Part shown: positions 59,501-62,500 of the stretch, in pieces | Numbering within the stretch: position 1 is the stretch's first letter | How the letters are laid out: every line of letters begins with the position of its first letter | Assembly (NCBI GenBank): GCA_963693365.1 | Contig: CAVNZM010000008.1 | Location: forward strand, 8,374,818 to 8,438,817 | Reading direction: 5' to 3' | DNA length: 64,000 nucleotides | Source of the DNA: Amoebidium appalachense | Lineage: Eukaryota; Protista; Ichthyosporea | Notes under the pieces: model-generated | What the model was told of the DNA's origin: nothing | Databases searched by the model: none | The model's input: only the letters and a program-made list of their open reading frames with translations | Made by a program: the position numbers and the translations under genes

Positions 59501-62500
59501 CTCCCCCCCCCCCCCCCCTCCGTCTCTCTCTCCCTCCCTCTCTCTCTCTCCCTCTCCCTCTCTCTCCCTGCTCTCTCTCTCTCTCTCTCTCTCTCTCTCT
59601 CTCTCTCTCTCTCTCTCTCTCTCTCTCTCTCTCTCTCTCTCTCTCTCTCTCTCTCTCTCTCTCTCTCTCTGTCTCCCCCTCTCTCTCTCTTTCGTTCTCT
59701 TTCGTTCTCTCTCGTTCTCTCCCTCCCTCTCTCTCTCTCTACCCCCCCCCCCCCCCCTCTCCCCCCCCGCTCCTTTCCCCAAACAATTCCCCCGCCGTTC
59801 TTCTTTCTCAGCCGGCTAGGTTTTTGGGTTGCCTGGTAAGTTTTGAACTGGAGCTCTTGTCCCTGATCTGTCCACCACAGGGTTTTTTTTTTTTTTTTTT
59901 TTTTTTTTTTTTTTTTTTTTTCCCCTTCTCCCCCCCCCCCCCCCCCCCCCCCCCCCCCCCCCCCCCTTTTCCCCCCTCCCTCCCTCCCCCTCCCCTTCGC
60001 CCTTCGCCCTTCCCCGGCCTACTCCCCCCCCCCCCCCCCCCCCCCCCCTCCGCCCCCCCTTCCCCTCCTACCTTCTTTCCCCCCCTTCCCCCCCCCCCCC
60101 CCCCCTCCCCCCCCCCTGGCCAAACCCTGTATACACTCTTCTCATCAGCAGGTCTCTAACCCACTCTGCAGAACGTTTTACACATTTCTCCCCTTGGAGA
60201 ACTTGGTCGTTGGTGCGTTTTTGTCTGATATCTAACGACTCTGCAGGGTCCCCTGAGACTACTGACACTCTAACATTCCCTCCCCTCTCTTACTTCACCC
60301 CCCCCCCCCCCCCCCTCCCCCCCCCCCTCCCCCCCCTCCCCCTTCCCCTCCTCGTTCCCCTCCCATTTCCTCTGCACACTCAACAGGTCTTAACCAACTC
60401 TGCATATCGTTAGTCACAATTTTCTCTCATATATGAGAGAATGATCGTATTGGTACGATTTGTCTAATATCTGACGATTCTGCAGCATCCCTAAGACCCC
60501 CCTCCCCCCTCCCCCCTCCCCCCCCCTCCCCCCCCCCCCCCCCCCCCCCCCCTTCTCTCTCTCTCTCTCTCTCTCTCTCTCTCTCTCTCTTTTTTTTTTT
60601 TCTTTTTTTCGACGCCTTTTGTTTTGCTTGTCATTTGTTGTTCTGGTTGATTACCTGTAATCTTCGCTTATTTATGTGTGTGTGTGTGTATGTATGTATG
60701 TTGTGCGGGGTTGCACACACCGGTGTCTACTTTTCTTCCTACTGTTTTTCTCTCCACACACTTCATCTGTCCACTTCTGCATACCCCCTCTCATAGCTAT
60801 AGACACACTTCACACATTGCGTTACGCGCACGCATGCACACACCACTCTGTTGGCGACAGCTCCCTTGGAACCCATGCGGCATGTTACCCGCTGGCGTAA
60901 CATAACTCGGACTATCGATTTGGCTTTTTTCAAGCCCAAAGCAATGGGTGATACCATATTTCCGGCTGACATCCGGGGGCATAGCTTTCCGTTCGAAGAC
61001 GTTTCAGTTCCGCCCTAGTAAGCGTGTTACTACCCTGCGGCGTGGGTCAAATCTCATATTTTCCCCTCTGATTACGAATTCTGCGGCCTTCGGGACTTAA
61101 TTCTTTTCAGCTGGTGTAGTATGTTAGCCAGGGAAGTATCGACTTAGGTAGCGACGGGGGACCTTCCCAGAAGCCCCGTCTCCTGAGTTCCTATCTATAT
61201 TTTTCTTGCTTCTGCTTACTGCTGCAACTTTAACCCCCGGCCTTTCCCACTGCCCTTGCCTGCATAAGTAACCCTGCTCGTCTCTGATCAAGACGGGTGA
61301 CCTACCCATGTTCAAGTGAAACAGTATCTGAGTTGGGTTTCGTTAACGAGGGGAATAGGTCGAAACTCGGGTACTGTGGATGACGTGGGCCCCCCTGAGG
61401 ATGGGCTCTGCTTATTATGCATACTCTTTATGTATGGCTTGCATTCTGCATCGTGTTATCCGTTTGTTCTTGTGTACTTCGTACTTTTTAAAGCATTCAA
61501 CCCCCCCCCCCCCCCCCCCCCAAAAAAAAAAGGCCTAATCCCCACTCCCAAACTACCCATCCATCTTCCCGTCTCTCTCTACCCTTGTAGGCGCTCAGTG
61601 AAGACGAGCATGCATGACCACATCATTTTCGCACACAAGACACGCAAACACACACACACACGCACCCATCCATCCATCCATCCACCGGCTCACCCACCCA
61701 CACACACATGCACACACATGCACACACACACACACACACCACCAAAATAAGAACACATCATATCCATGCAAGCAACCATTTGCCATTGTGGTTGCTTACT
61801 ACTGACCAGACAAAGACAGACAAAAAGGTAGCCGTTGCTCAGATTTCAGCTACAGGTTTAAGGATTTATTCTCATTTTTTCCACCTCTCCCCCTTCTTCC
61901 CCCCCTCCCCCCCCCCCCACAAACACAAACACACAAACACACAACCACACACACGTGCACACGCGCACACCTCTCTCTCTTCGTCTCTCCCTTTTCTTTC
62001 TTTCTTTCTTTCTTTTCTTTTTTTTGCAGTGCGGATGAAGCACTGACGTTTTTGTGCTTTTTGGCTGACGTCGACCGACTCTACAACGTGGCGCTGGGCA
62101 TGTATGACTTTGATCTGGTGGGTGCTGGTCTATAAAACTATAAATTAAAAGTAAATGTTCATACGTATATTTTTATTTCTGAGATGTATATACACAGCTT
62201 TGTTTTTTGAAAAGACATTCTCTGCCGTTGTTACGGTTCGATCTGCTTAACCTGTGCGGGCCGGCACGAATTGATTTGGCCGGCAGCCAGCCAGCTCTAA
62301 ACAGCTCTAAACAACTCTATTGCAGCTCAAAATCGATAGAAAAAGCTCAAATAGAGTGTAAATATCGACACGTATATGTCTTACCTACATAAGTTCTAAG
62401 TTGGCTTTGGGAAAATATCATTATTTCGTATGCTTTTGTATCTGTTTCTGTATTCCTGAAGTAACTATCTAGGGAAATATGCCATTATGAACAGGTTTAT

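Follow-up and report, generated by a model that had tools for sequence, protein, structure and literature searches.

The closest described counterpart of the module considered here is the hammerhead ribozyme of type SGC, in which the blocks named S, G, and C stand in that order. In the accessible portion of PMC10085705 (Eckert et al. 2023), the single paper on this type in the literature searched, type SGC is shown to cleave at 0.007–0.13 per minute, the blocks are assumed to be uninterruptible, and no example is given from the genome of a known organism, one GCS candidate excepted. Type CSG had previously comprised two metagenomic sequences. Penelope-like elements provide another point of comparison: according to the sections consulted of the respective papers, in some of their hammerheads a U separates positions 9 and 10.1, and cleavage occurs in dimers (PMC4209133), Naiad elements were published as lacking canonical hammerheads, with some flagged HHR_core or HHR_half_core (Craig et al. 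2021, PMC8557442), and in one Penelope-like element tested in vitro insertion did not need ribozyme cleavage (PMC11167929).

We analysed a window of 64,000 nt of Amoebidium appalachense (contig CAVNZM010000008.1), in which the initial annotation had described three long copies of an intronic repeat holding the same hammerhead core strands. All of the motifs and pairings it quoted were found in place, and the matches to a descriptor of the module exceed those in shuffled windows. Copies 2 and 3 are complete, whereas copy 1 is truncated and decayed, and the site at 49563 consists of block C alone. The intronic location was borne out as well. Copies 1 and 2 lie in sense orientation between the Helicase_C exon (349–477) and the CTE_SPB4 exon (3383–3655) of an SPB4-like helicase gene, and copy 3 lies, also in sense, between two ELP1 alpha-solenoid exons (58811–58915 and 62031–62117). 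A first search with an ELP1 exon gave no match. In a tree of ELP1 (658 columns, 31 chosen proteins plus the host, with no ichthyosporean knowingly included), the host was placed outside animals, among unicellular holozoans, with Capsaspora as its weakly supported neighbour (0.69). The host is likely to be a unicellular, non-animal holozoan. The ELP1 gene (41579–63492, plus strand) spans more than 21 kb, and its introns are rich in microsatellites. The window also contains a C2H2 zinc-finger protein (7989–10352, minus strand), for which a search yielded no informative lineage, a protein kinase (17371–19913, plus strand), and a GAS2-domain fragment (20682–20924, minus strand). Part of the CTE_SPB4 exon (3400–4030) seems to be repeated near 3990–4040, where a 15-residue stretch reads twice, a possible local duplication.

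The complete module of copy 3 occupies 61264–61415 on the plus strand, as all the copies do, and its paired strands form a nested scaffold that largely coincides with the predicted minimum-energy fold. It is closed by helix P1 (61264–61270 with 61409–61415) and helix P2 (61272–61274 with 61403–61405), followed by hairpin H (61277–61297). Strand P (61299–61304), the 10.x side of stem II with G10.1 at 61299, pairs with 61356–61361 and leads into the 5' arm of a distal helix, D (61305–61320 with 61378–61389), which corresponds to Eckert's helix I and contains a kink-turn pattern (C-stem 61312–61314, bulge 61315–61317, GAA 61318–61320). Block S (61321–61337) then provides the 5' strand of stem III, the GUU triplet with a predicted cut after 61334, and the stem I strand GGG. 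The linker between stems I and II includes a perfect 10-nt palindrome (61340–61349; 547 of 100000 shuffles), and block G (61356–61377) comprises the 11.x strand, GAAA (61362–61365), and the 3' strand of stem III. The stem I strand CCC, the core CUGAGGA (61395–61401), and an extra U complete the module (61392–61402).

Copy 2 is a unit of about 400 bp between C runs (2857–3262) and holds the same parts, with strand P at 3021–3025, a predicted cut after 3057, GAAA at 3089, and the core at 3123–3129. Its linker palindrome (3065–3074) is imperfect in this assembly and becomes perfect with the majority base at 3072. In copy 1 (2229–2459), the 5' truncation point falls inside hairpin H, the GUU triplet has its H17 at 2279, GAAA is at 2314, the core reads ATGATGA at 2348 (a C3A change), and the kink-turn is broken by the loss of a G. 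A further fragment at 49558–49578 carries only CTGATGA. The set of CUGAnGA, GAAA, and NUH is intact in copies 2 and 3 but not in the decayed copy 1. The pairing of the first two strands proposed initially is stem III, with 13 bp in copy 3, 9 contiguous bp in copy 2, and 4 bp in copy 1. The proposed covariation of stem I, which is 3–4 bp long, was likewise confirmed: GGAG (3058–3061) with CTCC (3119–3122) in copy 2 corresponds to GGG (61335–61337) with CCC (61392–61394) in copy 3. With stem II formed through the upstream strand (5–6 bp) and a G10.1–C11.1 pair, all three hammerhead stems are accounted for.

The order S-G-C is not a circular permutation of C-G-S as in types I–III, and Rfam gives no hammerhead match. 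The claim that a hammerhead-type fold in a non-circular order resides in a Penelope-like or retrozyme-like repeat agrees with our analysis (order S-G-C; 5' truncation, tandems, and poly-C), but the order itself, which had been taken as new, is that of type SGC, shown to cleave in the accessible part of PMC10085705. The module also resembles HRIMA-1 and its variants in having the entire core and a helix between the distal sides of stems I and II, here the 6 bp of helix D with one two-sided change. In type SGC, as far as the consulted sections of the same paper describe it, the 10.x strand follows CUGAnGA within 1–2 nt, whereas here it appears to lie upstream as a strand of its own; stems I and II are connected there by about 3 nt, against about 20 nt with a palindrome here. 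In the present module, moreover, the core is bridged by P1, P2, and H, helix I continues into stem III through the kink-turn pattern, and the host is a eukaryotic retroposon.

The initial annotation had built stem II from GGCUC after a UG insert. The 11.x strand, however, forms a stronger duplex with the upstream strand than in the GGCUC register, at −6.7 versus −2.2 kcal/mol in copy 3 and −8.7 versus −5.1 kcal/mol in copy 2, differences of 4.5 and 3.6 kcal/mol. The upstream pairing is Watson–Crick at six of six positions with 61299–61304 and at five with 3021–3025, and includes one compensatory change, U–A in copy 3 against C–G in copy 2. In the GGCUC register, copy 2 can form six pairs, three of them G–U, and copy 1 fits that register slightly better than the upstream strand (five versus four of six). 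The earlier stem II is probably wrong, and the supposed UG insert is probably a single U after A9, followed by an extra helix: P2 and P1 pair with strands upstream of hairpin H, which itself stops short of G10.1 by one or two U. An intermediate model, which combined a U insert with a stem II of 2 bp and a GGGY/GCUC helix formed locally, was abandoned once strand P was recognised. Along the repeat the strands thus run 10.x, S, G, CUGAnGA, with P1, P2, and H bridging the opening. Because the nucleotides following CUGAGGA serve to close two additional helices, the chain would enter the core between A9 and G10.1, a wiring that Eckert's scheme does not allow, and judging from the sequences the layout is probably a further permutation of the SGC/CSG/GCS circle, opened at that point. 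A normal type I–III order assembled across tandem units was ruled out, since the cyclic order remains S-G-C. Within the literature searched, neither this core-opened form nor a permuted hammerhead in a Penelope-like element was reported; earlier papers (Weinberg 2015, Lunse 2017) and the supplementary figures of Eckert may bear on it. The topology thus appears to be undescribed in the sources at hand, as had been suggested, but for the opening between A9 and G10.1 and not for the block order.

Comparison of the two complete copies, the only ones available for covariation within the genome, showed full agreement at the 16 core positions, as opposed to agreement at 60 of the other 87 positions within 61299–61401. 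Among the 50 proposed pairs, 36 are unchanged, 6 show two-sided and 4 one-sided changes, and 4 are broken; this pattern has a p of 1e-4 to 3e-3 under a random-substitution null in which the bulge was placed by hand. In an unfitted MAFFT alignment, 97.9% of the cells pair (4 double changes), compared with 32–42% when the alignment is slid, and the tool's own covariation shuffle control gave 31/500, which is not significant with two rows. Stem I carries a single compensatory pair. The alleles that prevail in public runs re-establish a pair or the palindrome: C at 61269 is present in 97%, and A at 3072, which completes the copy-2 palindrome, accounts for 99.7% of the depth in run X1 and 100% in X6. 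No listed within-subfamily variant reaches 1% in the core or the kink-turn, while the variant density in the module is not lower than outside (6 of 111 versus 28 of 296 sites, p 0.23). The predicted nested fold forms P1, P2, H, III, and D and leaves P and block C mostly free, with the core partly sequestered by a local hairpin. The rod that had been regarded as a competing fold covaries and is the conserved scaffold itself, a counterpart of stem III together with the helix I of Eckert.

The occurrence of the four-strand layout in the window exceeds chance, with two matches against one in 100 shuffled windows. A generic S-G-C descriptor gave two matches with an intact core, copies 2 and 3, or three, with copy 1 added, if an ATGA core was permitted, and 60 shuffled windows gave 0.03 loose matches per window and no strict match. 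Among 213 chance pairs of GTCGAAAC and CTGAnGATGG in metagenome and viral contigs, any S block was found in five and a stem III of at least 8 bp in none, and none of the control loci from a looser pattern (121 and 118) resembled the element. The family-specific pattern had no match in metagenome contigs, nor did the descriptor match any of 33 viral loci carrying the block C motif. The Rfam scan of the window (128 matches) contained no hammerhead, and no snoRNA at the copies. When each region was folded as a whole, the z-scores of copies 3 and 2 were unremarkable (−0.32 and −1.06), and that of copy 1 was −2.78.

A kink-turn consists of a C-stem, a 3-nt bulge, G–A and A–G pairs, and an NC stem. 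This pattern occurs in register in copies 2 and 3, 13 nt from A15.1 in both, with a third pair that is A–G or U–U depending on the subfamily. Loose kink-turn patterns are frequent in shuffles (16–17%), and only the in-register form is rare (about 0.4% of shuffled arms). The 10-nt palindrome in the linker of about 20 nt is likewise present in both subfamilies, with differing sequences (about 0.5% of shuffles). Helix D, linking the far ends of stems I and II, runs on into stem III as one rod, and the nested fold is predicted to place the two loops needed for the core at opposite ends of it. A crude A-form estimate gives a gap of 41–58 Å, to be spanned by linkers of 0 and 2 nt. Since the rod seems too long for its linkers in one molecule, we infer assembly between two units; the earlier suggestion of assembly from several RNAs is a serious possibility.

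The carrier repeat has the habits of a retroposon. The long copy around module 3 extends over 60700–61503; its upstream part is also high-copy and has no protein family, and its 3' end enters poly-C. At least seven further 5'-truncated copies in the window have a common 3' end and run into poly-C: one between C runs (43113–43196), a short 3'-end copy ahead of poly-C (44567–44605), two of the copy-2 type (48664–48753 and 56214–56306), and three starting at an internal C run (51594–51719, 53498–53610, and 58992–59121). Every copy has the plus orientation, and in this region it is the plus strand that is rich in C (75 long runs versus 13 in 41500–64000). In public runs, 10167 (X1) and 10073 (X2) contigs align to copy 3, where the depth climbs toward the 3' end and cover reaches back to 60700, and 17 and 2 contigs align in X10 and X13; copy 2 has 13350 (X1), 5023 (X6), 6 (X12), and 17 (X17), all of these being contig counts and not copy numbers. 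A head-to-tail joint from 3262 to 2863 with 52 letters between was found in one X17 contig, and the same junction in one X12 contig; with spacers of 47–52 nt, the arrays have a unit of about 450 bp. In one X1 contig, 61373 is joined to 61363 and the module is interrupted by short repeats of the TAGGG type. The ends of two X10 contigs at 61336 and the start of one X1 joint at 3057 lie close to predicted cuts but were given no weight, since RNA ends cannot be read from contigs.

5' truncation, partial and head-to-tail tandems, and an optional tail are features of Penelope-like elements, as is the insertion bias toward microsatellites, the copies by inspection ending in or sitting between C runs. 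The assignment to this class is likely, by resemblance. No reverse transcriptase or GIY-YIG domain was detected in 150 of 311 ORF segments or in the six frames of 60601–61262. A 71-codon ORF (60803–61015, frame to 61021) has a double stop at its end and an intron-like pyrimidine tract ahead, and its search against 1.84 billion proteins yielded no reverse transcriptase or GIY-YIG; its matches were repetitive proteins sharing a short motif, judged spurious from 2 of 17 sequences. The copy-2 and copy-3 types diverge upstream of 2975 and 61254, suggesting from sequence that the element may be modular or recombined. The motif TTTAACCCCC at 61228–61240, just upstream of the shared module, resembles the 3' ends of the element itself.

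Non-LTR retrozymes and dimeric minimal hammerheads share with the repeat short non-coding tandem units carrying a hammerhead, a U between 9 and 10.1, and activity tied to multimers, predicted in the case of the repeat (PMC4209133 and bioRxiv 10.64898/2026.07.22.740005, as far as accessible). Their hammerhead, however, is of type I and has a tiny palindrome as its stem III, whereas the stem III here is long, the order is non-circular, and no type I hammerhead is found in the tandem unit. According to the consulted parts of PMC8557442, Chlamys and the MRC1-type non-autonomous derivatives have in common with the repeat a (C)n bias, 3' ends in AACCCC(C), and multicopy head-to-tail forms; unlike this repeat, none of the eight Chlamys 3' ends examined by eye had the four-strand form. 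Naiad shares microsatellite targeting, 5' truncation, partial tandems, and tails, but is published as animal-only and (TA)n-biased, while the present repeat has a (C)n bias, is non-coding as seen, and has a likely non-animal host.

From the Naiad consensi (PMC8557442, supplement File S5), 24 of 54 3' ends were inspected by eye over the last 450–600 nt, the records being named by file order. Seven of them (Amil, Anas, Bfor, Chem-3, Dcar, Obim, and Ovul) displayed the four-strand layout; they represent a coral pair, a ctenophore, a hydrozoan, a rotifer, and an octopus pair, about five independent lineages. These ends often have the UG gap and the U before G10.1, and for those of the coral, ctenophore, hydrozoan, and rotifer a stem II built from the bases that follow A9 is not possible. 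In the octopus ends, a kink-turn pattern is in the opposite orientation and the arms are short. The Esco end is a degenerate four-strand version, and in Sdum the order is SGC but the core is broken. No layout could be resolved by eye in nine of the 24 ends. A clean type CSG was seen in the six others listed, Parc, Nbra-2, Nbra-3, Hpol, Hcon, and Smim; these consensi, five from nematodes and one from a spider, have a long helix I, which in some of them runs directly into stem III without a linker.

On balance, though with some reserve, we favour the reading that the repeat is a non-autonomous, Naiad-related Penelope-like retroposon, whose 3' part would form a hammerhead of non-circular order with its core opened between A9 and G10.1, cleavage after GUU depending largely on the pairing of two copies. 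The loop at one rod end, with the cut site and GAAA, would dock on the multiloop at the other, with the 10.x strand and CUGAGGA, the missing half being supplied by a neighbouring tandem unit or by a second RNA that the linker palindrome keeps in place. In this way multimeric precursors would be trimmed, solo intronic copies would stay mostly inactive, and a Penelope-type reverse transcriptase, presumably priming on G-rich strands, would mobilise the repeat. Two-unit assembly is favoured because dimeric Penelope-like hammerheads have been described (PMC4209133, available sections) and because of the gap relative to the linker length. The same four-strand hammerhead could instead act as a monomer, if the rod were folded back by the kink-turn, by a kink-turn-binding protein, or by the element's protein, or if D melted transiently. 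The kink-turn at equal distance in both subfamilies and the short arms of the octopus form in the Naiad ends inspected agree with this, and co-transcriptional cleavage is seen in type-SGC RNAs even though they possess a comparable connection that lacks an explanation (PMC10085705, accessible part); the gap to be spanned by so few nucleotides, a cost of about 10 kcal/mol for melting D, and the intact solo copies lying in sense in the ELP1 and helicase introns make it rather unlikely.

A plain type-SGC hammerhead with stem II formed by GGCUC could draw on the 4–6 stem II pairs possible in all three copies and on two phage-contig loci passing Rfam Hammerhead_II (L206:392–456 and L227:392–458), which align with a 2-nt 'ug' insert after A9. 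We regard it as quite unlikely, given the weaker duplexes, the varying base at 61357 compensated only in the upstream pairing, the GGG after the core that P2 takes up in the predicted fold, and the several inspected Naiad versions that cannot pair in this way. A similar phage-contig locus, L256, is below the Rfam threshold. The module may also be a hammerhead-derived 3' structure that binds reverse transcriptase or a host protein and no longer cuts. GUU is a weak cleavage site, stem I is short, a hairpin involves the core, the copies end at poly-C away from the predicted cut, and many copies lack the module altogether, but the core has been kept at every position while 27 of 87 neighbours differ, and stem I covaries, so that we hold this to be fairly improbable. 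An intronic box C/D-type small RNA, suggested by the UGAUGA and CUGA motifs, the intronic sense location, and the GA/GA kink-turn pattern, is very improbable in view of the lack of an Rfam match at the sites, a 3b–3n pair that is A–G and not U–U in copy 3, and the thousands of truncated, poly-C-tailed copies.

The core-opened wiring of the preferred reading would break the assumption, stated for type SGC, that the CUGAnGA block is uninterruptible, and would place non-circularly permuted hammerheads in eukaryotic chromosomes. More tentatively, and with considerable doubt, an active core-opened seventh permutation may be common to Naiad and a unicellular relative of animals, working as an obligate two-molecule ring with kink-turn corners and a palindrome cross-link, so that only tandem transcripts would be cut. 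The reported absence of hammerheads from Naiad would be explained by descriptors that demanded the usual order, and the repeat points to Naiad-related elements beyond animals. These modules would offer short natural constructs for the geometry puzzle of types SGC and CSG, in cis versus in trans, and for the role of cleavage in the transposition of Penelope-like elements.
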